IMG/VR virus record: IMGVR_UViG_2806310948_000001
Span: 8,187-72,186 of that record
DNA length: 64,000 nucleotides
From: a virus
Lineage: Duplodnaviria > Caudoviricetes
Direction: 5' to 3' (one strand)
The translations under genes were made by a program, and so were the position numbers. Under the pieces are notes generated by a model. That model had not been told where the DNA came from, made no database searches, and worked only from the letters and a program-made list of their open reading frames with translations. Of this stretch, positions 7,735 to 58,581 are shown one piece after another; position 1 is the stretch's first letter; the number at the start of each line of letters is the position of its first letter.

Positions 7735-8557
7735 AGAAAAGATTACAGGGACCGAAAAAGAGTTTTTGGATGTGTTCAGGCAGCTCTGCATCAGCAGGAG
7801 TTCGTGGCAGGTGTGGGCGGATCTTATGGCGGCAATGGCATGTACACTTGCAAATGCAGTAGATAAGTCATTGCCGAGACATACGGCAAGGGAAAAAGAG
7901 TATGCAGAGTGCATCAAACGCCTTGGAGGAGTGGAGAAGCCAGCCAAGTGCTTTGCGATTGTAGTTGAAGCACTGGAACGCAATCCAGATCAGGACTTTC
8001 TTGGAAAGCTGTACATGAGCCTTGAGTTAGGAAATCACTGGAAAGGGCAGTTTTTTACACCATACAATGTCTGCGAATGTATGGCTGGCATAACAATCAA
8101 TGACAATATACAGACATTGGAAAAACAGGAATGGATATCTGTCAATGATCCGGCATGTGGAGCAGGAGCGACTCTTGTAGCAACGGCAAACATATTCCGC
8201 AGAAAAAAGATAAATTACCAGACACGGGTTTTGTTCACCGCCAATGACATAGACAGAGTAGTTGCTCAGATGTGTTACATACAGCTTTCACTTCTTGGGT
8301 GTGCAGGCTGGGTGGCTGTTGCAAATACGATATCCAATCCGGTATGCGGAGATCCGCTGATGCCTGACGAAAAACCTGGACAGGAATTTTGGTACACACC
8401 GTTTTACTTTCGGGAAGAATGGTGTAGGAGACGACAGCTCAAGATATTTAGAGAACAGTTTGGCGCATTGGTCGTGCCATTGAGAAAAATAGAAGCTGAA
8501 AGGACAACATTTTATTTTGATTTCGAGAAAGGAGAATACAAATGTCAGAACAGTTAA
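7727..8557 (+). CDS. N-6 DNA methylase-like SAM-binding protein
   Basis: GQFFTP, DPACGAG (SAM-binding motif I) and DID motifs. Confidence 0.75.
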   Translation: MNEEKITGTEKEFLDVFRQLCISRSSWQVWADLMAAMACTLANAVDKSLPRHTAREKEYAECIKRLGGVEKPAKCFAIVVEALERNPDQDFLGKLYMSLELGNHWKGQFFTPYNVCECMAGITINDNIQTLEKQEWISVNDPACGAGATLVATANIFRRKKINYQTRVLFTANDIDRVVAQMCYIQLSLLGCAGWVAVANTISNPVCGDPLMPDEKPGQEFWYTPFYFREEWCRRRQLKIFREQFGALVVPLRKIEAERTTFYFDFEKGEYKCQNS

Positions 8558-44741: not shown

Positions 44742-45872
44742 TTGACAGAAGAATTTGTAACTCCAGAATTTATAGATAACAGCGATCCTGATACAATCCA
44801 GTCCCGGATGATGAATAATCTGCCAGTTGATATATCTGATATGCCGGCAGACTTTCCATATGATTTTACCATGCCGACTGCAATCGAGATCTCCAGACTG
44901 ATACAGTACAACCTTACCCGAACATTGATGCTTATGTTTCCACTTTGGGCCTGGGGTGAATGGCTTGATCTGCATGGAGTATCTGCAAAGGTAACACGAA
45001 AGCAGGCAAGCAGAGCTTCCGGCCATGTGACCGTCACAGGCATCGCTGGAACGATTATCGAGGAAGGGACGGTATTTTGCACAGAAGGTACGACAGATGT
45101 CGAATCTGTTGAATTTGCGACGACTGAGGAAGCAACTATACCAGAGCAGGGAACGGTTGACATACCTGTTGCGTCTGTTTTAACGGGAGCTACCTATAAT
45201 GTTACAAGAAATACTGTGACATTGCAGAAGCAGCCCAACGAGAATATCACTTCCGTAACAAATGAGAACCCTATCAGAGGTGGTACAGATGAAGAAGACG
45301 ACGATACATACCGGGAGAGAATCCTTGAGAAACTGCGGTCAGCGGAGGTGAGCTTTGTTGGCTGTGATGCAGACTATGTCAGATGGGCGAAGGAAGTGTC
45401 CGGTGTGGGTTCAGCTGTCGTAGAACCGGAATGGAAAGGACCTGGAACTGTAAAAGTTGTAGTTGCGGATCCGGATGGCAGCGCGGTTGGCGAAGAAACT
45501 CTGAAAGCTGTCGAGAATTATATCGTATCTCCGAAGGACAGATTGAAGAGGCTGGCTCCGATCGGAGCTTCCGTAACTATATCCACTGTACAGGATATGA
45601 CGATGAAGTACAGAGCAGTGATTGAACTTGAGAGCAATTACAGCGTTGACAATGTGAAGGAAGCATTCTTGTCGGCGTTGAAAACCTATTACAGAACTGC
45701 GAAGGACAATGAAGAAATCAGATATACAGTTGTATCGGCATTGTTGTCAAATACGGCTGGCGTAATTGATTTTTCTGGCTTAAAGATTAATTCAGGCACA
45801 GATAACATAGCTGTTGCGGCAGATTATTATCCGGTAACAACACTGAGTGACCTTGATTTTACGGAGGGATAA
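44742..45872 (+). CDS. Baseplate J-like protein (XkdT)
   Basis: GGTDEEDDDTYRERI; DYVRWAKEVSGVG; PEWKGPGTVKV. Confidence 0.9.
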   Translation: MTEEFVTPEFIDNSDPDTIQSRMMNNLPVDISDMPADFPYDFTMPTAIEISRLIQYNLTRTLMLMFPLWAWGEWLDLHGVSAKVTRKQASRASGHVTVTGIAGTIIEEGTVFCTEGTTDVESVEFATTEEATIPEQGTVDIPVASVLTGATYNVTRNTVTLQKQPNENITSVTNENPIRGGTDEEDDDTYRERILEKLRSAEVSFVGCDADYVRWAKEVSGVGSAVVEPEWKGPGTVKVVVADPDGSAVGEETLKAVENYIVSPKDRLKRLAPIGASVTISTVQDMTMKYRAVIELESNYSVDNVKEAFLSALKTYYRTAKDNEEIRYTVVSALLSNTAGVIDFSGLKINSGTDNIAVAADYYPVTTLSDLDFTEG

Positions 45873-47018: not shown

Positions 47019-47621
47019 ATGGCGAACGTGGTTATCCCGGAGAATCCGGAGTTCAATGAAGCTTTGAGAATCATCGAGACAGAGGATCTGGTTCATGCGA
47101 ATGTAGTAAATCCTATGTTTAGGACATTACTGCTTAATACTATATATCTCGAACGACGGGTAGCAAAGATGATCGAACGGATTGACACACTTGCGATTGA
47201 CAATACCTATGGAGGACCAGAGCTGTCGGCGGATGCAAATATCGTAGATGCAAGCGCGCAGTTCAGCGTTATCAGGAAAACGTCGTCGACAGCATCAGTA
47301 CAGACACTGTTTCAAAAAGCAATCGATAGTCTCAGAAAAGGACTCTATAGCTTGTTGATTAGAGTGAAAGTGAACTCAAATTCAAATAACGGCGGGCTAA
47401 TCGAATTAAATGTAACGTCTGGCGGAGCGATATTGGAAACCAGAACTATTACTGCAAATATGTTTGAAAGAGCAGGAGTTTATCAGACGTTTGGACTTAA
47501 TGTTGAATTGAATGATACGGTTACTATTACTGCGAGATTGCTGAAAAATAGCGCAAATATAACGGTGTCCGTTGATTATGTCATGCTTCAGCCGGCTCAG
47601 ACAGCAATCACGAGTTTGTAG
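47019..47621 (+). CDS. Putative short tail-fibre / baseplate-associated protein
   Basis: N-terminal IIETEDLVHANVVNPMF..LL.NT..L anchor-type segment; beta-rich C-terminus. Confidence 0.55.
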   Translation: MANVVIPENPEFNEALRIIETEDLVHANVVNPMFRTLLLNTIYLERRVAKMIERIDTLAIDNTYGGPELSADANIVDASAQFSVIRKTSSTASVQTLFQKAIDSLRKGLYSLLIRVKVNSNSNNGGLIELNVTSGGAILETRTITANMFERAGVYQTFGLNVELNDTVTITARLLKNSANITVSVDYVMLQPAQTAITSL

Positions 47622-47632
47622 GCGGTGGCTAT

Positions 47633-48163
47633 ATGATATCAGCAGAGAGACTTGTAGAATTGCGGGCAAAAGTAAAAAAAGAAATGGCAAGGAGAAGCTG
47701 TGTGGAGCATGGTTCAAGCGCTTCAATGAATAAATTTGCTGCAAATTATGATTATAATGTTGTTCCGGTCACTGGGGGAGACATTACAGATGAACATATA
47801 CAAAAGGTTATTGATCCGCTGCTTAATGTAGCGGATTTTTTGCAGAATAACAGCCTGCAACAGAGTCATAGTGGAGCAGATGTGATCGTCGATCAGGCGG
47901 AGAAATTTGTTGATACCCTTGCAAAAATAGATAAGCAGGCAAGTGATAGTGGGTGCAGAGGACTCTGTACGGGGTTATGTGTAGGTTCTTGCACATCTGG
48001 CTGTCAGGGATGCACTGGGTGTACTGGTGGTTGCGATACCACTTGCGCAAAGAGTTGTTCAGATGGCTGTTCTACATCCTGCGGTGGTTGTTCAGATGGC
48101 TGTTTTTCTGGATGCACACATACCTGTGGTTCCGGATGTACAACCGGCGCGATGACTACATAA
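47633..48163 (+). CDS. Cys-X3-repeat protein A (about 105-aa Cys-poor N-terminus, 17-Cys C-terminal repeat)
   Basis: GCRGLCTGLCVGSCTSGC...CTHTCGSGC. Confidence 0.85.
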   Translation: MISAERLVELRAKVKKEMARRSCVEHGSSASMNKFAANYDYNVVPVTGGDITDEHIQKVIDPLLNVADFLQNNSLQQSHSGADVIVDQAEKFVDTLAKIDKQASDSGCRGLCTGLCVGSCTSGCQGCTGCTGGCDTTCAKSCSDGCSTSCGGCSDGCFSGCTHTCGSGCTTGAMTT

Positions 48164-48181
48164 TGAGAGGAGGTGATATCT

Positions 48182-48970
48182 ATGGCGTGTTCAAAAGGAT
48201 GTGGAACGAGTTGTGCAACGAGCTGTAAGTCCACAGCGTCTGGCAACTGCGGCGGATGCGGGACTTCTTGTTCACGAAATTGCAGTACGATATGCTCAGG
48301 TACCTGCTCTGGTACTTGTAACAAAACATGCACAAAGCAGTGCAATCATAATTGTTCGGATGAATGCACTGGATGTCAACGGACATGCGCAGATGATTGC
48401 GAGGCAGGATGCAAAACGGATTGCCTTCAGACCTGCACAGCGAATTGTTCAGACACTTGCGCAGACTGCACAGGTGGATGTGGAAACAGTTGCTTTGCGA
48501 CATGCGCTGATGACTGCACAGGTGGATGCAAAGGCGGTTGCAACACGACATGCACAGCGAATTGTATGAACGACTGCAATACCTGGTGCGAAGGAGGATG
48601 TTATTCTTCATGCACATGGACTTGCGAAGGATGCAGTAATACTTGCACTGGTACCTGCTCCGGTACCTGTTCTGGTACCTGTTCTGGTACCTGTTCTGGT
48701 ACTTGTCAGGGTTGTGATAATAAGTGCACAGCTTCCTGTGCTCAGTCTTGTACTGGTTGTAGCGGCTGTTCGGGTTGTGGAAATTCCTGTGGTTCCGGAT
48801 GCACAGATAGCTGCATGGGAACCTGCAAAAGCAATTGTTCTGGAGGCTGCGGAACCAGCTGCGGAGGATGCTCTACATCCTGTGCATCAAGCTGTCAGAG
48901 TGATTGTGGCGGGACCTGCAGGAATCAGTGCTACGGACAGGCGACTACACCGATATATTCATTTAATTAG
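48182..48970 (+). CDS. Cys-X3-repeat protein B (262 aa, 64 Cys), putative radical SAM substrate
   Basis: GAGGAGG RBS, ATG 48182; Cys at nearly every 4th (sometimes 3rd) residue, flanked by S/G/T/A. Confidence 0.88.
   Translation: MACSKGCGTSCATSCKSTASGNCGGCGTSCSRNCSTICSGTCSGTCNKTCTKQCNHNCSDECTGCQRTCADDCEAGCKTDCLQTCTANCSDTCADCTGGCGNSCFATCADDCTGGCKGGCNTTCTANCMNDCNTWCEGGCYSSCTWTCEGCSNTCTGTCSGTCSGTCSGTCSGTCQGCDNKCTASCAQSCTGCSGCSGCGNSCGSGCTDSCMGTCKSNCSGGCGTSCGGCSTSCASSCQSDCGGTCRNQCYGQATTPIYSFN
48650..48709 (+). repeat. In-frame 12-bp tandem repeat (5 units, GGTACCTGTTCT consensus; SGTC repeats)
   Basis: ggtacctgctcc, ggtacctgttct x3, ggtacttgtcag. Confidence 0.9.
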
Positions 48971-48979
48971 GAGGAAAAA

Positions 48980-49309
48980 ATGAGAACAGTAATTATTAAA
49001 GTAGACAGCAAAGAGGCAGAGTACATCGAAAGACTGGACTACGAAAGGGGATTTACTAAAGATGTCCTGCAGAGAATCATCGAATCACATATGGAAGACC
49101 CAGATGTAATCAATAGCCCGGCATTTAAGGCTTATCAGAAACAGGGAGCGGAATTGGATGCACAGTTCAGCATGGCAGTAGCAGAGCTTGAGAAAAAATA
49201 TATTCCGGAGATTCTTAAACATCACAAGACCAAATGGAATCTTGAGTACAAGACAGGAGAACTGAAAGTAGACATTCTGTGCAATTGTGAAATTGAGGGA
49301 ATCAAATGA
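48980..49309 (+). CDS. Small partner protein of CXXX-repeat modification system
   Basis: 109 aa between the Cys-rich genes and the radical SAM gene; ATGA overlap. Confidence 0.7.
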   Translation: MRTVIIKVDSKEAEYIERLDYERGFTKDVLQRIIESHMEDPDVINSPAFKAYQKQGAELDAQFSMAVAELEKKYIPEILKHHKTKWNLEYKTGELKVDILCNCEIEGIK

Positions 49310-50619
49310 AAAGAACAGAACAATATTCCGAAAGGCTGAGCAGATTATATCCTGAGCTGCACGAACCGGTAGGGACAGAAAAGATTCTGACTCAGACCGT
49401 TACATTTCAGGTCACTGATGACTGCAATCTGGCATGCAAGTATTGTTACCAGACACATAAGGGCAAAAAGAAGATGTCGTTTGAAACAGCGAAGAAAATG
49501 GTTGATCTTTTACTGTCTGGAAATAAGGGTGTGGGCGATTACATAAATCCTCAAAAAAGCCCTGGGCTTATCATTGATTTTATTGGTGGGGAACCCCTGC
49601 TGGAGATTGAATTAATTGACCAGATCTGCAGCTACACGATTAACAGGATGATCGAATTAAACCATCCGTGGCTGACGAGAACGATGTTTTCCATATGTTC
49701 GAATGGAGTGTGCTACTTCGAACCGGAAGTACAGAGAGTTTTACAGAAATGGAATCAGCGCCTGTCTTTTTCTGTGACTGTTGACGGAAATAAAGAACTT
49801 CACGATTCCTGCCGGGTATTTCCGGATGGGCAGCCATCTTATGATCTGGCAATTTCAGCGGCGAAAGATTGGGTAAACAAAGGTGGATATATGGGTAGCA
49901 AGGTTACGATAGCTCCTGCAAATGTGATGCATGTGTACGATGCAATTACGCACATGATCAATCTTGGATATAACGAGATCAATGCAAACTGCGTCTACGA
50001 AGAAGGATGGCAGATGATCCATGCAACGGTTTTTTATGACCAGCTGAAGAAGCTTGCAGACTATATCTTGGAACACAATCTTGATATGGAGAATGATTAT
50101 TACATTTCACTGTTCGAGGAAAACTTCTTTCACCCGAAGCAGCCTGACGACCTTGAAAACTGGTGCGGTGGAAATGGCGTAATGCTTGCTGTTGATCCAG
50201 ATGGAATTATCTATCCATGTCTGAGATATATGGAAAGCTCTCTGGCGGGGCAGCAGGAACCATATAGTATAGGAGATGTGGATACAGGAATCTGCCAGAC
50301 GGAATGCGACAGATGCCGCGTAGAATGCTTGAAGAAAATTGACAGGAGAACACAGAGCACAGACGAGTGCTTTAACTGTCCTGTCGCAGAAGGCTGTAGT
50401 TGGTGTACTGCATACAACTATCAGGTGTTCGGTACACCGGATGCAAGAGCAACTTATATTTGCGATATGCACAAAGCACGTGCGCTGGGAAATATTTATT
50501 TCTGGAATCACTATTATGAGAAAAATAATATCGACAAGCATATGGAGAATCATGTACCGGAAGAATGGGCACTTAACATTATCAGCAAACCTGAATGGGA
50601 TATGCTGTGCAGTTTATAA
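49306..50619 (+). CDS. Radical SAM/SPASM peptide maturase (CXXX-repeat target type)
   Basis: CNLACKYC; FIGGEPLL; SPASM-like C-x12-G-x4-C and C-x2-C-x5-C-x2-C-x18-C. Confidence 0.92.
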   Translation: MKRTEQYSERLSRLYPELHEPVGTEKILTQTVTFQVTDDCNLACKYCYQTHKGKKKMSFETAKKMVDLLLSGNKGVGDYINPQKSPGLIIDFIGGEPLLEIELIDQICSYTINRMIELNHPWLTRTMFSICSNGVCYFEPEVQRVLQKWNQRLSFSVTVDGNKELHDSCRVFPDGQPSYDLAISAAKDWVNKGGYMGSKVTIAPANVMHVYDAITHMINLGYNEINANCVYEEGWQMIHATVFYDQLKKLADYILEHNLDMENDYYISLFEENFFHPKQPDDLENWCGGNGVMLAVDPDGIIYPCLRYMESSLAGQQEPYSIGDVDTGICQTECDRCRVECLKKIDRRTQSTDECFNCPVAEGCSWCTAYNYQVFGTPDARATYICDMHKARALGNIYFWNHYYEKNNIDKHMENHVPEEWALNIISKPEWDMLCSL

Positions 50620-50689: not shown

Positions 50690-51412
50690 ATGATAAAACA
50701 AGAAGTTATCTTTAATGTCAAAAACCTCAAGATTTCAAAAACGGAGAATATTTTCGCAACAGAAGGCATCAAAAATGTGTTTACGGCAGTATTTCAGTTT
50801 CATTCTACGGATTGGGATGGGCTGGCAAAAACAGCTGTGTTTGAAAACGCAGAAGGAACGAAAGAGCCAAAGCTGTTAGAAGAAGACAGATGTGATATCC
50901 CGGATAGCTTTTTTAAGACTTCCGGGGTTTGCTATGTTTCTGTAATGGCAGGAAACTTCATGGTAACAAATAAAGTTGCCATTATCGTAGTCAATGCCGG
51001 CTATACTTCTGGCGATACCGTAGCGGAAGCTAAGAACTACTTTGAACAGATTCTCAGATATTTTGACGCAACAAATATGAATGTCCAGAAATACGGAAAG
51101 CTGGCTGAGAGATTCGCTGTCGGATTGGCAGAAGATCCGGAGAGCCTTATGGATAACGCAAAATATTATGCACATCAGGCAGAACAGGCGGTAATGGGAA
51201 TCCCTGGACAGGTGGAAGATGCGAAGAATGATATCGATGCTTATGTAAAAGAAAAGGAAGCTGATCTGAAAGGCGAGGATGGAAATGTGTGCTTTGTCGA
51301 GTTTCGCATTGAGCCACCTTGCTTGTATATGCGGAATAATCCGGATGAAACAGACATAGAGTTCCGACTAAACGGTTCAAAATTGGAATACAAATGGAGG
51401 GAAAGAGGTTAA
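50690..51412 (+). CDS. BppU-like / tail-fibre-associated protein
   Basis: F.F.STDWDGLAKTAVF...CDIP N-terminal pattern. Confidence 0.6.
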   Translation: MIKQEVIFNVKNLKISKTENIFATEGIKNVFTAVFQFHSTDWDGLAKTAVFENAEGTKEPKLLEEDRCDIPDSFFKTSGVCYVSVMAGNFMVTNKVAIIVVNAGYTSGDTVAEAKNYFEQILRYFDATNMNVQKYGKLAERFAVGLAEDPESLMDNAKYYAHQAEQAVMGIPGQVEDAKNDIDAYVKEKEADLKGEDGNVCFVEFRIEPPCLYMRNNPDETDIEFRLNGSKLEYKWRERG

Positions 51413-53695
51413 ATGGCAAATAGATCAACGGGCAGTGGCCAGTGGACTGACATGGGGAACGTTACACCAAATCCTCGTGGAAGTTATTCTGACGCTGAAA
51501 CATATAAGTATTTAGATATGGTGTCATATGGTGGCGGTTCATATCTCTGCTTGCAGGATGATACAATTGGTGTGCGCCCATCTCCTGGTGAAAGTACAGA
51601 CAGATGGTTCTGTTCTTCGGTGCCAGGAGAAGCAACCCCAGATTTCAAAAACTTAGTGACAGAAACTAAAGAAGCGGCCAGGACAGCAAAAGAAAAAGCA
51701 TCTGAGGCGGAGACAAGTGCAAAGGCTTCAGAAATAAGTGCACAGGCGGCTTCGAACTCAGCCGGAGCAGCAGCAGCTTCGGCCAGAGATGCGGAGAATG
51801 CAAAAGATGTTGTTGCCGGATACAAAAATGCGGCTGAAAAGGCTGCATCATCCGCTGCTACATCTGAGAAAAATGTAAATGATAAAATTGCTGGACTGGA
51901 CAATACGTTTTCTGAAAAGACAACGAGTGCAATAGAAACCATAAACAAATCCGTAGATACAAAAGCGGAGGAGATAAAAAATGAAATAACTGCAACAAAA
52001 AATTCTATGGTGGATGCGTCTCAGAAAGCTATAAACGACACAATCGATGCGAGAAAAACTGAGATCAATAATACAGGTGCATCTGAAATTAAAAATGTAC
52101 AGGCTGAATCAGCAACACAGACACAGGGGATTAAAAGCGTAGCAGCTGAGCAGCTGGCAGCTATTAATGCAGCTGGTGGCACTTTAGAGAGTGCAATTGA
52201 GCGCTACTATGCTATGCGCCGTACGAGAGAAATCTATACGGTAGAAGACCTTGATCCGGATGTTACACAGGCCTGCACGGTAAATCGTTTAGATGCTCTG
52301 TCTGGTCTTACCTGCACACCGTCCACAAATACGACAGCTGGAGAAGACCAAATTGGAACTCTCGAAGCATTCCGCCCGATTGAAGTGAACTGGATCCTCG
52401 ATGATGATGGAAACCAGAAAATTACTGCAATTGAAGGAATGCCGGGATATAAGACGACAGGAAAAGTCAATCGTGGAATCATGAACATGGGACTTTATTA
52501 CAAAAAAGAGCGAAATGCAGAAGATAATGGTTGGCTACATCATTGGTCCATGCTTCCTCGAAAAGAAGAAGGATATGTTCCGATGAAAGAATGTGTTCGT
52601 CCAGACAATACGGTGCAGGGATGGATGCTCCATCCTAAAGGAGCGGCAGTGGATATTGATGGTGTTCCATATGTAACCAACGGAAAACCAGTCAGAAACA
52701 AACCTTCGTATGCAAATTTTGCATATGCACGAAAACAGGGGCCGGCATACTGCTTTGAAACAGATGTGGATGCTGCATGGGTTCTGGCGTTGACAATGAT
52801 TAAGTACGGAACAAAGGACCTGCAGGCCTATATGAGAGGATGCACATCTTACAGTTATCAGTATAATGTTGCGGTTGCTGAAGAGAATACAAAGAGAGTA
52901 ATTCTCACAAAAGATCAGGCGAATGATTTTGTTGTTGGTTCATTTGTTAGTGTTGGAAATCCAGGTTCAAATACGAACTATGATCGATATTATGCTTACA
53001 TGCATAATATCGTTGATAGCGTAAAAATCACGGCGATTGAAGCTGTGGATGAAACACATAGTGCATTGGTACTGGATGTTGCAGTACCTTTTACGACGGA
53101 AACAAGTTACAAGGTAAGTACAATGCATTGGGAGACAGGATCCACTGATTCCGTACAGGGTTACGATGGAAGCCCAGTATCCAATACAGATGGAAAGAAT
53201 ATCTGCAAGATTAATGGCATCGAGATTCTTCCGGGTGGATATTCTGTGTCCGGAAACTCTATGCATATTGTTTCAACAGATGCAGATGGCAATACAGTCG
53301 ATAAGTATTATCGAACCAATAATGCTAAGTTACTGACGACCAATTTAGATACGATCATAAGTACCTATGAAGAAGTGGGTATCTTACCGGAGGCATACGA
53401 TGCATGGAAGTATGTAAAAGGACAGCTTGTGGACTTTGGTAAAGGGACAATGATTCCGACTGAATGGGGAGGAGGCGATAAGGCTTGGTGGGCTGATGCT
53501 TGGTATTGCGGTGGAAAACCTGCGGCTGGAACAAGAACAGGCCGGGAGCTCCTCCGGCGCGGCGGTCTGAACGCTGGCGGCGTGAACGGCCCGTCGTGCG
53601 TGGGTGGCCTCAATGGCCTGGCGGATGCCTGGTGGGGCATCCTCGCGACCCTTTCTCCTAACGCCGTACGGGGTGAATGGCAGGCGGCAGCCTGA
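51413..53695 (+). CDS. Tail fibre / receptor-binding protein, DGR target (C-terminal CLec-type variable region)
   Basis: N-terminal PRGSYSDAETYKYLDMVSYGGGSY, Ala-rich coiled stalk, VR at the 3' end. Confidence 0.88.
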   Translation: MANRSTGSGQWTDMGNVTPNPRGSYSDAETYKYLDMVSYGGGSYLCLQDDTIGVRPSPGESTDRWFCSSVPGEATPDFKNLVTETKEAARTAKEKASEAETSAKASEISAQAASNSAGAAAASARDAENAKDVVAGYKNAAEKAASSAATSEKNVNDKIAGLDNTFSEKTTSAIETINKSVDTKAEEIKNEITATKNSMVDASQKAINDTIDARKTEINNTGASEIKNVQAESATQTQGIKSVAAEQLAAINAAGGTLESAIERYYAMRRTREIYTVEDLDPDVTQACTVNRLDALSGLTCTPSTNTTAGEDQIGTLEAFRPIEVNWILDDDGNQKITAIEGMPGYKTTGKVNRGIMNMGLYYKKERNAEDNGWLHHWSMLPRKEEGYVPMKECVRPDNTVQGWMLHPKGAAVDIDGVPYVTNGKPVRNKPSYANFAYARKQGPAYCFETDVDAAWVLALTMIKYGTKDLQAYMRGCTSYSYQYNVAVAEENTKRVILTKDQANDFVVGSFVSVGNPGSNTNYDRYYAYMHNIVDSVKITAIEAVDETHSALVLDVAVPFTTETSYKVSTMHWETGSTDSVQGYDGSPVSNTDGKNICKINGIEILPGGYSVSGNSMHIVSTDADGNTVDKYYRTNNAKLLTTNLDTIISTYEEVGILPEAYDAWKYVKGQLVDFGKGTMIPTEWGGGDKAWWADAWYCGGKPAAGTRTGRELLRRGGLNAGGVNGPSCVGGLNGLADAWWGILATLSPNAVRGEWQAAA
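53542..53656 (+). repeat. DGR variable repeat (VR)
   Basis: 115 bp, 15 mismatches to TR, all opposite TR adenines. Confidence 0.97.
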
Positions 53696-53713
53696 CAGAG
53701 GGGCTGTCCCCTC
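53678..53713 (+). promoter_or_regulatory. Hairpins downstream of VR (likely DGR retrohoming signal)
   Basis: CAGGC-GGCA-GCCTG (53681-53694) and GAGGGG-CTGT-CCCCTC (53698-53713). Confidence 0.6.
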
Positions 53714-53775
53714 CAATGGCTATAAATGATTTTAAAGTAACTATGAAATAGAATATTTTTAAGGACTTATGAGGT

Positions 53776-53890
53776 CCGGGAGCTCCTCCGGCGCGGCAAT
53801 CTGAACAATGGCGGCATGAACGGCCCGTCGTGCGTGAATGGCAACAATGGCCTGACGAATGCCTGGTGGAACATCCTCGCGACAATTTCT
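53776..53890 (+). ncRNA. DGR template repeat (TR), within a structured RNA of about 53760-54099
   Basis: AAC/AAT-rich copy of VR; flanked by 11-bp inverted repeat CTTATGAGGTC / GACCTCATAAG. Confidence 0.95.
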
Positions 53891-54099
53891 GTGTATAAAA
53901 AATTTGATACTCGACCTCATAAGCCGGCTGAAGAAGCCTATACTTGGGAATACCCGAAATACGTGATAAAAGGCCATTCCTTTCTCATGAAGTAGATTGA
54001 TATCTGCAGAGTGGGAAGGGGAGACTGGCAGGTGCGCTGTCAGCCGGGACTAGTAGACAACCGAAAGTCCCTGAATCACACAGAAAGGAAAATGCCTTT

Positions 54100-55377
54100 A
54101 TGAAGAAATGCTGCAAGAATGTAAATATTTTAGCAGATGATTTTATTGAAGATTCAATTTATGAAGCACTTGACGAAAAATGGAAACGGTCAGATGTGGC
54201 AAAGTATCTGCATGGTCGCACAAGCTCAATGAGTTTGCAGGCTATGAAACGATTGCTTCGGAACACAGACGAAAGAGATCTCATGGTATCTGGTCTGGTC
54301 CATACAGTTGCAGAAAGCCTGCGCTATGAAATCCAGAACCGGTGTTTGAAAGTAGAACCTATTCAATACAGTTGGAGACAAGATGGGGTCAATGGAAAAA
54401 TCCGAGAAATCGGTGTAGAAAGCGTAAAACAGCTGATTTTGGATGAAATAGCCAGTGAAGGTTTGGATGAACTCTGGAGGCGAAAGCTGGGATACCATCA
54501 GTACGCAAGCATTAAGGGAAAAGGACAGCTCGGCGGAAAGAAAGCAATAGAGCACCAGATCCGGAAGAAATACAGCATGTCTCGGTACGCTTGGAAAGGT
54601 GACGTAAAAAAGTGCTATCCATCTGTAGATACCCGCAAGCTAAAAAGAATGCTGGAACATGATGTAAAAAATGAAGTCCTGCTATATCTTGTATATTTCT
54701 TAATAGGAACCTACAAGCAGGGACTTAATATAGGATCAGGATTATCCCAGTTTCTCTGTAATTACTATCTTGCGAAAGCTTATGTGTATGTTCTTGGCTT
54801 ACATAAAGTCAGGAAACACCGTGATGGAGCTACCGAAAGCAAAAGACTTGTATATTTTTGTATCATGTATATGGATGATATTTTGCTCATAGGAGCCCGG
54901 GAAGCTGATGTAAAGAGGGCGGCTCGGGCGTTGGAAAAGTATCTGTTGAAAGAGTACGGACTCACAATAAAACCGGATGCAGACCTATTCCCAATTGATT
55001 ATCGCATCAAAACCGGAAATAAATATGAGAATTACAGAGAAAAGGATAAGGCAGAAAGGCGCGGTAAGCCGATTGATATGATGGGTTATGTAATTTATAG
55101 GGAACATACAGAAATCCGTAATAAGATCTTTCTACGGGCAAGGAAAGCATATTCCGTTGCATGGTACTGTATGAAAAATAAAAAGGAAATCCCGTTACAT
55201 ACCGCCTATAAATGTACAAGTTATTACGGTTGGTTTAAGCATACCGATTCCAAATATGTCAAAGACAAATATAATATTGATGCTGTTTGCGCAGCTGCAA
55301 AAAGGAGGATCAGCAAACATGCAAAAAGCGAAATATATGGAACGTCAGCCAGAAGTGCGCTGGCAGCCTGTCAATAA
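54100..55377 (+). CDS. DGR reverse transcriptase
   Basis: KGDVKKCYPS, GLNIGSGLSQ (DGR-type SQ), YMDD, IDMMGY; directly after TR. Confidence 0.95.
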   Translation: MKKCCKNVNILADDFIEDSIYEALDEKWKRSDVAKYLHGRTSSMSLQAMKRLLRNTDERDLMVSGLVHTVAESLRYEIQNRCLKVEPIQYSWRQDGVNGKIREIGVESVKQLILDEIASEGLDELWRRKLGYHQYASIKGKGQLGGKKAIEHQIRKKYSMSRYAWKGDVKKCYPSVDTRKLKRMLEHDVKNEVLLYLVYFLIGTYKQGLNIGSGLSQFLCNYYLAKAYVYVLGLHKVRKHRDGATESKRLVYFCIMYMDDILLIGAREADVKRAARALEKYLLKEYGLTIKPDADLFPIDYRIKTGNKYENYREKDKAERRGKPIDMMGYVIYREHTEIRNKIFLRARKAYSVAWYCMKNKKEIPLHTAYKCTSYYGWFKHTDSKYVKDKYNIDAVCAAAKRRISKHAKSEIYGTSARSALAACQ

Positions 55378-57169: not shown

Positions 57170-57210
57170 TTAGGAGCCTGTTTTAAGGCTCCTTTTTGCG
57201 AGGTGGACTT

Positions 57211-58581
57211 ATGGATAAGCAAAATATAACTGTATTGAGAAAAATACTGTACGCAGTGGAATCTGGGAATCAGATTTACGGAGAACAGGATTACGCAGCC
57301 TTTGCCGAAGTTGGAGCAAATTGTAGTAATGAGAAAGCAATCACCATTGGGGCCGGGCAGTGGTACGCAGACGAAGCGAAAGAATTGTTGTACAGAATCC
57401 AGAGAGGCAATCCGAAGTTGTTCAAGGACATGGACACAGAGAATCTTGAAGCTGATCTTCTCAAAAAGAGCTGGGCTACATATGCGGTAAGTAAGGATTC
57501 TGCAAAAGGCAGATTGATTATCAGCATCATTAGTATGGAACTTGGCAAGAAATGCCAGGATCAGTATATGGAAGACCAGATTGCGGCATACGCAAAAAGT
57601 ATCGAAAAAACATACGGATCCATGCCGGATACCGCAATGATGGAATGTATCAATATCCTACATCAGGGTGGCTTTGATGCATTGAAAAGAATCTTGTCTA
57701 AAACTCCGGAACCATATACTGCAGACAAGATTTATGCAACACTGTGTCGGGATCCGGCAGACCCGACGCCGAATCAGGTAGGGGATTACACAGACAGGCA
57801 GAAAACTGTCATAAACATGATTCATACATATGCTGATAACACAGAGAAAGAAGGTATTGCAATGACTAAGACAGAAAAAGCAATAAGACAGATGGAGACA
57901 TGGGCGAAAGATGATTCTCATGGCTACGATCAGGACTACCGCTGGGGAGAAAAGGGAGATTACGACTGTTCCTCGGCTGTGATCCAGGCATGGCAGAACG
58001 CCGGAGTTCCGGTTAAGTCTGGTGGCGCTACATACACAGGAGATATGAAGAACGTATTCTTGAAAAATGGATTTGTAGATGTAACGAGCAAAGTTAACGT
58101 AGCAACCGGATCTGGTTTGCTCAGAGGAGATGTGCTGCTGAATGAAGCACATCATGTAGCCATGTATTGTGGAAATGGCAAAGAGGTAGAAGCCTCAATT
58201 AACGAGAAAGGTACCGCTCATGGAGGTAAACCGGGAGATCAGACTGGCAAGGAGTTTTTGATCCGGAGCTATCGGAATTATCCTTGGAATTGTGTGCTCA
58301 GGTATAGAGGGAATATTTTCTCTGCTTCTGACACAGAGAAGAAACAGAACACAGTGGCCTATGTAGCCAGATTCACAAAGGATTGCAAGTGCTATAGTGC
58401 AGCTGGCAAAACTCAAGCTAAAATGTTCCCAGTGATTAAAAAGAATGCGGTTGTAGATGTGATGAAATACACCGAAACCGTAAAGGGAAAAAGATGGTAC
58501 TTCATCCGGATTCCGTATCCAAATGACGAAGGATTCGTAAGGGAGTTCGTCCCAGCTGGATACTTCAAGAAGTTGATTTAA
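57211..58581 (+). CDS. Endolysin: N-terminal putative glycosidase-like domain, NlpC/P60-type amidohydrolase, SH3-like C-terminus
   Basis: HGYDQ...DYDCSSAV (catalytic Cys), HHVAMY; C-terminal RWYFIRI. Confidence 0.85.
   Translation: MDKQNITVLRKILYAVESGNQIYGEQDYAAFAEVGANCSNEKAITIGAGQWYADEAKELLYRIQRGNPKLFKDMDTENLEADLLKKSWATYAVSKDSAKGRLIISIISMELGKKCQDQYMEDQIAAYAKSIEKTYGSMPDTAMMECINILHQGGFDALKRILSKTPEPYTADKIYATLCRDPADPTPNQVGDYTDRQKTVINMIHTYADNTEKEGIAMTKTEKAIRQMETWAKDDSHGYDQDYRWGEKGDYDCSSAVIQAWQNAGVPVKSGGATYTGDMKNVFLKNGFVDVTSKVNVATGSGLLRGDVLLNEAHHVAMYCGNGKEVEASINEKGTAHGGKPGDQTGKEFLIRSYRNYPWNCVLRYRGNIFSASDTEKKQNTVAYVARFTKDCKCYSAAGKTQAKMFPVIKKNAVVDVMKYTETVKGKRWYFIRIPYPNDEGFVREFVPAGYFKKLI

Follow-up and report, generated by a model that had tools for sequence, protein, structure and literature searches.

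A Cys-ladder and radical SAM maturase cassette in the tail module of a Blautia provirus, a phage-associated form of the CXXX-repeat system

A four-gene cassette between baseplate and fibre genes

The 64,000-nt stretch of DNA analysed here (the window) is part of an IMG/VR provirus (record IMGVR_UViG_2806310948_000001, positions 8,187–72,186), of which a 99%-identical copy is present in a Blautia wexlerae genome (L082). At positions 47633–50619, the window contains a cassette of four open reading frames (ORFs), which encode two Cys-rich proteins (A and B), a small partner protein (C), and a radical S-adenosylmethionine (SAM) enzyme. These genes had been noticed in an earlier inspection of the letters alone (hereafter, the sequence-only reading), and all four were found at the coordinates given there and with the spacing claimed, i.e. 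gaps of 11, 18, and 9 nt and a 4-nt overlap. Judged by gene content and order, the enzyme, the partner, and very large Cys-ladder substrates are encoded together and co-conserved: the order ladder protein(s)–C–radical SAM enzyme recurs in ~80 IMG/VR contigs and ~65 genome loci, and ladder proteins adjoin the enzyme gene in nearly all related loci, A and B being directly upstream in the window. Hundreds of other phages carry such a set beside tail genes, and it probably serves to modify a tail-associated protein. Incorporation into virions and thioether chemistry are inferences. The four genes are as follows.

47633–48163, + strand: protein A, 176 aa, a ~104-aa helical N-terminal domain (N-domain) followed by a 17-Cys ladder; TIGR04114, 19.6 bits
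48182–48970 (ORF from 48173), + strand: protein B, a leaderless 262-aa Cys ladder with 64 Cys; TIGR04114, 32.4 bits; phrog_6085, E = 9e-17
48980–49309, + strand: protein C, a 109-aa partner whose gene has an ATGA overlap with the enzyme gene; profile-level homology to TIGR04116
49306–50619, + strand: radical SAM/SPASM maturase of the CXXX-repeat target family, 437 aa; TIGR04115, 652 bits; phrog_1802, E = 2.6e-89

The genes for A, B, and C, like the cassette as a whole, are embedded in a tail morphogenesis block with conserved synteny, and the gene order is kept in phages whose baseplate proteins share merely 23–46% identity. In the window, the block runs in the order sheath, tube, tape measure, LysM protein, YqbQ-like protein, sheath initiator, Baseplate_J, Gp48-like protein, and tail-collar N-domain protein, followed by p200, A, B, C, the radical SAM enzyme, p240, p760, a reverse transcriptase, and an endolysin. 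Pfam and PHROG scans of the neighbouring genes, listed below, put the cassette within a contractile-tail module and agree with the placement proposed in the sequence-only reading, between the baseplate/collar and fibre genes.

44742–45872, + strand: Baseplate J-like protein, upstream context; Pfam PF04865, 201 bits
45875–46633, + strand: Mu Gp48/XkdU-like baseplate protein, upstream context; Pfam PF10076, 70.7 bits
46630–47004, + strand: 124-aa protein made up of a tail-collar fibre N-terminal domain, upstream context; Pfam PF12571; phrog_1780 (tail collar fiber), E = 6.8e-24
47019–47621, + strand: p200, a 200-aa Cys-free protein directly upstream of A; no Pfam or PHROG match
50690–51412, + strand: p240, 240 aa, downstream context; phrog_16164, E = 2.1e-47
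51413–53695, + strand: p760, a 760-aa putative tail fibre, downstream context; phrog_17147 (unknown function), 783 bits

Homologues of p200 are present at the equivalent position in two loci only (L083 and L090). Downstream, p240 aligns to the N-terminal 229 positions of the 920-position phage family phrog_16164, whose function is unannotated, and the N-terminus of p760 shows a weak match to the tail fiber family phrog_5073 (E = 2.7e-4). All flanking genes scanned on both sides of the cassette encode baseplate, tail-collar, fibre-like, or unassigned proteins, with no exporter or peptidase among them. The genes for C and the enzyme are translationally coupled through the ATGA overlap, and the G + C content of the cassette is like that of the neighbouring genes. 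A promoter scan of the 41–58 kb region returned 39 sites, compared with 36.7 in shuffled sequence, and the corresponding terminator scan returned 15, compared with 11.6, both at the chance level; no terminator was placed at either flank of the cassette. The absence of a visible promoter or terminator before gene A, noted in the sequence-only reading, is consistent with these scans (nothing strong lies ahead of A), although the test is a weak one.

The maturase, its partner, and the ladder proteins

The enzyme is a clear member of TIGR04115, as the sequence-only reading had supposed (652.2 bits, E = 2.6e-196, profile positions 1–359). The curated bit-score cut-offs are 350 for TIGR04115, 340 for the PapB family (NF047865), 20 for TIGR04114, and 50 for TIGR04116. 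The PapB family was the second-best match at 175.4 bits over residues 31–378, and the SCIFF maturase (TIGR03974) and QhpD (TIGR03906) models gave ~105 bits each, all below their cut-offs. The CxxxCxxC motif was located as CX3CX2C at C40/C44/C47, and the SPASM-like cluster comprises the conserved residues C287, C305, C355, C358, C364, C367, and C386; the motif and these seven C-terminal Cys are invariant in 16 relatives of the enzyme. The Pfam SPASM domain itself was reported for a bacterial-type relative only. The SCIFF, QhpD, and HxsB profiles align from their positions 81–96 onward to residue ~29 of the enzyme, which therefore lacks the ~85–95 N-terminal positions of those maturase models. 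In such maturases, the N-terminal region carries the leader-recognition domain, or RiPP recognition element (RRE), where RiPP denotes a peptide that is made by ribosomes and modified after translation. The absence of this region would leave room for a recognition partner acting in trans.

Protein C is a candidate for such a partner. Its membership of the TIGR04116 partner family, implied in the sequence-only reading, was not supported: HMMER gave no match for C even at E = 10, and membership was rejected on this basis. Among phage-type partners in general, only 2 of 47 matched the model, and weakly. For comparison, 14 true TIGR04116 proteins (scoring 55–100 bits) were collected from 13 genomes, comprising 12 bacterial-type genomes and one (G024) that also holds phage-type copies. 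When the alignment of C-type proteins was compared with that of these true members using hhalign, a match with 96% probability was obtained (E = 4e-9, 91 columns), and the motif W-x-(L/I)-D-F-x-T is common to both alignments. On this profile evidence, C is a divergent, distant homologue of the TIGR04116 partner and not a member of the family. In the AlphaFold2 (AF2) model of C, which is confident, with a predicted local distance difference test (pLDDT) score of 96, a single strand at the N-terminus is followed by two long helices and a hairpin of beta strands. Foldseek found nothing in the PDB at E <= 0.001, and a wide structure search (VIA) returned only generic helical matches (Z <= 7.4). 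The possibility that C is an RRE of the PqqD-like type (a winged helix with a three-stranded sheet and three helices) received no support, fold searches having given only generic helical-hairpin matches.

Of the 18 Cys of protein A, 17 are found within the final 72 residues and only one within residues 1–104; its TIGR04114 score falls just short of the cut-off. Protein B passes this repeat model, as had been expected, and contains 64 Cys among 262 aa (24%) in 53 CX3C and 9 CX2C spacings; its other residues are mostly Gly, Thr, Ser, Asn, Ala, and Asp, and in 39 of the 53 CX3C spacings, the second Cys is immediately preceded by Thr, Ser, Asn, or Asp. Families for both kinds of protein already exist in the PHROG collection, phrog_1802 for the enzyme and phrog_6085 (unknown function) for the ladder, and neither A nor B matched a structural PHROG or Pfam family. 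The statement in the sequence-only reading that the cassette has no leader peptide holds for B; A, by contrast, has a conserved ~104-aa N-domain that behaves like a leader or recognition domain. AF2 predicted residues 1–105 of A as a confident helical domain (pLDDT ~85–94). No Pfam family was found for the N-domain across 50 members, and its best matches in fold searches (IglD and designed bundles, Z 6.5 or lower; TssK, 4.6–4.8) were within the noise range for helical proteins and gave no support to its identification as a known tail or leader domain.

A profile search with the N-domain among 1.84 billion representatives retrieved 600 clusters at 50% identity, of which 383 had E <= 1e-10. The domain is N-terminal in almost all of the top 150 proteins, and a ladder is present in 105 of the 150; the remainder are mostly fragments, with a few frameshifted or chimeric calls. 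Matches without Cys (P0013, P0030, P0117, and P0126) were considered as possible variants, proved to be frameshifted ladders or chimeric calls, and were not counted. In the ESM Atlas, the N-domain adjoins unnamed clusters that are 89–100% viral, and PF27846, the Pfam family corresponding to TIGR04114, is listed there as a repeat of the ‘modification target’ kind.

At viral and genomic loci of more distant relatives, the ~100-aa N-domain and a 140–650-aa ladder containing 25–145 Cys are specified by one ORF. Moreover, in 28 contigs whose enzyme is ~80% identical, the equivalent of B lies in frame behind the single TAA or TAG codon of the A equivalent. Because of these two arrangements, A and B are best described, on comparative grounds, as two halves of one ancestral substrate composed of an N-domain and a long Cys ladder. 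The group of 28 contigs comprises L024 (8590–9700) and 27 sisters (L025–L052 and L069), among which L042 has TAG. An AAGGAGG sequence is conserved in these contigs, whereas none of the start codons ATG, GTG, and TTG precedes the first Cys of the B equivalent; read-through of the A–B stop codon or non-canonical initiation may occur in this group. Read-through joining A to B was rejected for the window, where A ends with the double stop TAA TGA and B has its own GGAGGTG Shine-Dalgarno sequence and ATG (48182), which together indicate that B is initiated separately. Two further arrangements of ladder genes were observed. P0002 (334 aa) holds the N-domain, a ladder, and a C-like partner in one open frame, and is either a natural substrate–partner fusion or the product of a lost stop codon. 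In L070 (4201–9244 of a ~141-kb contig), four adjacent ladder genes lie upstream of the enzyme gene, and the product of one of them has 968 aa, 104 of which are Cys.

Two kinds of TIGR04115 system

Fifty genomes reached through the enzyme were compared, and the systems were divided into a bacterial type (12 genomes) and a phage type (38 genomes), which differ as follows.

Enzyme: a ~725-aa fused form in 10 of 12 of the bacterial type; ~440 aa in the phage type
Partner: true TIGR04116 (55–100 bits) in the bacterial type; C-like and below the cut-off in the phage type
Substrate: 50–90-aa Cys peptides in the bacterial type; N-domain plus ladder in the phage type
Export and cleavage genes: ATP-binding cassette (ABC) exporter and S8 peptidase in the bacterial-type loci scanned; none found in the phage type

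The lack of an exporter and a protease in the cassette, pointed out in the sequence-only reading, is thus borne out, the bacterial subfamily carrying both. Three of the bacterial-type clusters (L156:7454–12650, L150:7435–12750, and L146) are complete classical RiPP sets with an ABC exporter, an S8 peptidase, a ~725-aa radical SAM enzyme, a TIGR04116 partner, and a 52–92-aa precursor; their ~725-aa enzymes have a ~290-aa C-terminal extension without a recognized family.

The genomic context of the two types was counted independently of virus catalogues. In 24 of the 38 phage-type genomes, a Baseplate_J gene lies on the same contig and strand, <=16 kb upstream of the enzyme gene (within 8 kb in 23), whereas none of the 12 bacterial-type genomes has one near the enzyme. 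The expectation for such proximity by chance is well under 1%, given 1–5 Baseplate_J genes per ~3-Mb genome. Among 13 phage-type loci without Baseplate_J that were checked, at least nine have virion PHROG matches directly upstream (tail-fibre, minor-tail, baseplate-wedge, tail-collar, and virion-structural classes). The sequence-only reading had named a location of homologues mostly outside phage structural modules as an outcome that would speak against it; for the enzyme's own subfamily, they lie mostly within such modules.

In an unrooted tree of TIGR04115 enzymes, all members of the bacterial type fall into one clade (SH-aLRT 100), and the phage-type branches around it are diverse; the tree was built without an outgroup, and no claim is made as to which of the two types came first. 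The enzyme occurs in 4 of 251 genomes of an even sample of Lachnospiraceae, the host family, a patchy distribution resembling that of mobile elements. Among the INPHARED phage records, only two relatives at ~38% identity were found (unannotated faecal contigs), and the radical SAM genes of Erwinia and Salmonella jumbo phages are ~24% identical to the enzyme.

Possible roles of the product and the adjoining fibre genes

The reading we favour, at a probability of about 0.5, is that the cassette is a phage-adapted version of the CXXX-repeat radical SAM peptide-maturation system, the stapled and uncleaved product of which is located in or on the adsorption apparatus. According to this model, the cassette would be transcribed together with the late tail genes, and C, alone or with the enzyme, would recognize the conserved N-domain of A. 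The enzyme would then act along the C-(S/T/G/N/D)3-C ladder and, by 5'-deoxyadenosyl radical chemistry, introduce cross-links derived from many of its Cys residues. By analogy with the nearest characterized relatives, PapB and the SCIFF maturases, the cross-links would most likely be thioethers between Cys S and carbon, with the Thr, Ser, Asn, or Asp residues preceding the next Cys as the probable acceptors. The uncleaved, stapled protein would finally become a part of the phage adsorption apparatus or an accessory bound to it. For the association of the product with virions as such, the odds appear roughly even. The more specific proposal, that dozens of thioether or other Cys-derived cross-links are placed on a ladder protein joining the adsorption apparatus in tailed phages of anaerobic Firmicutes, is a tentative one that falls somewhat short of even odds.

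A virion location is suggested because the position of the cassette in the adsorption block is conserved, the substrates are large, presumably uncleaved, and furnished with a folded domain, exporter and protease genes are absent, and three natural variants are known. In the first of these variants, P0098, the N-domain is followed by a module with matches to phage families of the host-range/adsorption, tail, Tal, and PblB-type receptor-binding kinds (E to 2.5e-14) and then by a ladder; the middle module also has a weak match to Pfam CBM_4_9. P0049, composed of an N-domain, a ladder, and a 190-aa C-terminal domain, is encoded in a siphovirus after the tape measure protein, Dit, Gp37, and a 650-aa protein; it is followed by genes for proteins of 109 and 445 aa, which correspond to C and the radical SAM enzyme in position and size, and by a holin gene further downstream. 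In P0132, the first ~75 residues of the N-domain are joined to a second domain, for which the match to phrog_38190 (unknown function) is strong and that to a tail-fibre PHROG is weak.

Several observations weigh against this model. The three fusions are single clusters, and almost all of the 150 top-scoring N-domain proteins consist of a free-standing domain and ladder, unfused to a fibre. No structural relative of the N-domain or of C was found among known tail proteins, and AF2 predicted no fold for the ladder of A (pLDDT <40). Conservation of the N-domain is strong and extends over phages whose tails are unrelated, of both the myovirus and siphovirus types, which fits a handle recognized by the maturase better than a dock for the baseplate or tail. 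Since B has no N-domain, recognition by way of this domain leaves the modification of B unexplained. In siphoviruses, the cassette lies at the tail-to-lysis junction, a usual slot for cargo genes. For the chemistry, the analogy is with families whose cut-offs were not reached.

Some of these points would also fit a product that acts outside the particle, i.e. a large, RiPP-like cross-linked protein made late and released by lysis to serve as an antimicrobial, an adhesin or matrix binder, or a decoy. Host lysis would then replace the exporter, and a dying host would need no immunity gene. The bacterial branch of the enzyme family, which has an ABC exporter and an S8 peptidase, is indeed of the classical kind in which a peptide is exported; the N-domain is leader-like and co-conserved with the enzyme rather than with the tail type; the substrate is almost always free-standing, with no homology to a known structural protein found; and the siphovirus cassette immediately precedes the lysis genes. 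However, the cassette of the window, like that of 24 of the 38 phage-type genomes, is inside the baseplate-to-fibre block, on the same strand, tightly spaced, and not at the end of an operon. Known secreted RiPPs do not resemble substrates of 170–650 aa that include a folded domain, and fusions to modules of the tail or adsorption type exist. We therefore regard release at lysis as unlikely, while taking it seriously.

A poorer fit is the proposal that the ladders ligate Zn, Fe, or Fe-S in the manner of metallothioneins, on or near the tail, the radical SAM enzyme having another role or making few modifications. A Cys content of 24% at regular CX3C and CX2C spacings with Gly, Ser, and Thr between does resemble metal-thiolate proteins, and the lack of a predicted fold in the absence of ligands would be in keeping with this. 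Metal binding alone, however, requires no radical SAM enzyme, and at hundreds of loci the ladders are strictly accompanied by a SPASM maturase dedicated to them and by its partner. As to family names, TIGR04114, which B matches, is in NCBIfam merely a ‘Cys-rich repeat-containing protein’, but PF27846 is a ‘modification target’ repeat. This proposal is considered improbable. Finally, weak sigma-70-like matches on the + strand at 47633, 48137, and 50626 and the sporadic occurrence among Lachnospiraceae (4 of 251 genomes) could point to a lysogenic-conversion moron, i.e. an ordinary ranthipeptide-type cluster carried along by the prophage, which would benefit the host and have a promoter of its own that is active in the lysogen, but this is very improbable given that such sites occur at chance frequency with no flanking terminator, that the genes are separated by 9–18 nt or overlap (C and the enzyme) and share the G + C content of their neighbours, that the tail-module synteny persists across phages with divergent baseplate proteins, and that exporter, protease, and immunity genes are lacking.

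The stapled adsorption-apparatus protein favoured here can be set against several known systems. The CXXX-repeat system, consisting of a TIGR04115 maturase, TIGR04114 or TIGR04117 targets, and a TIGR04116 partner, has been defined computationally, and no characterized member was found in a literature search. The cassette resembles it in having an enzyme that is a full member, targets with a Cys-X3 repeat, and a partner of ~100 aa adjoining the enzyme gene. Unlike the bacterial members, the phage form has an enzyme of ~440 aa, substrates of 170–650 aa with a folded ~104-aa N-domain, and a location in the tail module. PapB forms thioethers between Cys S and the C-beta of Asp. The PapB/PapA (freyrasin) ranthipeptide system is similar in that a SPASM radical SAM enzyme acts on repeated Cys-X3 motifs, but the repeated motif in the window is C-X3-C, in which Thr, Ser, Asn, or Asp precedes the following Cys, instead of C-X3-D, and the substrates are proteins in a phage tail context rather than a ~50-aa peptide. 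Thioether macrocyclization by PapB is also described in a published paper.

The SCIFF maturases (CteB/Tte1186 type) and QhpD are related SPASM enzymes that cross-link Cys to carbons of other residues; compared with these, the enzyme of the window is shortened at the N-terminus as described above, is accompanied by a separate partner, and differs in targets and context. The protein subunit on which QhpD acts is retained and not exported. The cassette also departs from a classical exported sacti- or ranthipeptide cluster, its substrates being 176 and 262 aa, with B leaderless and neither protease nor exporter among the scanned flanks. Among virion proteins, the isopeptide chainmail of the HK97 capsid is conceptually comparable, as are tail-fibre assembly chaperones: the shared concepts are the covalent strengthening of a virion part and the placement of maturation factors beside fibre genes. 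HK97 cross-linking is autocatalytic and occurs on the capsid, whereas a dedicated enzyme and the tail module would be involved here. In a literature search, no case was found of a virion protein modified by a radical SAM enzyme.

The three-gene CXXX system is already known as a computational family, and its presence in phage genomes is implicit in the PHROGs. A literature search found no paper describing the system in phages or giving it a function; TIGR04115 appeared once, in an unrelated pig-microbiome paper, and the papers found on ranthipeptides and phages do not link the two. Ranthipeptide clusters have been reported as widespread in Clostridia, without a link to prophages. What appears to be new at the level of gene comparison is the description of A and B as a split of one substrate, the distant homology of C to TIGR04116, the distinction between bacterial and phage types of TIGR04115 system, and the rare fusions. 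The system would be categorically new only if virion stapling were demonstrated; it would then represent the first enzyme-installed radical cross-linking of a virion protein, with RiPP machinery acting on whole proteins of up to ~650 residues. If the products are virion parts, this would be a new phage-assembly chemistry, in which radical SAM stapling takes place in a reducing cytoplasm where disulfides cannot form, and it may explain the robustness of fibres in the gut. If they are instead released at lysis, they would constitute a new class of phage-made extracellular protein. The cassette would offer a first biological setting for the computationally defined CXXX-repeat family and would extend RiPP-type enzymes to very large substrates with folded domains, which could be useful for protein stapling. 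Should the proposal hold, many ‘ranthipeptide’ clusters called in gut Clostridia would be prophage tail modules, and genome-mining tools that count such clusters may be counting prophage tail genes.

As regards the genes flanking the cassette, the tail module apparently contains two split-gene fibre sets, one formed by the 124-aa tail-collar N-domain protein and p200 and the other by p240 and p760. The C-terminal peptide of p760 recurs in a downstream non-coding copy (~53816–53995) with Asn at the variable positions, and the variable repeat (VR) lies near the end of p760 (from 53560). A reverse transcriptase (Pfam RVT_1) is encoded at 54100–55377. From this arrangement, the fibre tip of p760 looks like the target of a diversity-generating retroelement (53560–55377). 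The late region ends with an endolysin gene at 57196–58581, the product of which has NlpC/P60, Amidase_5, and endolysin-like domains.

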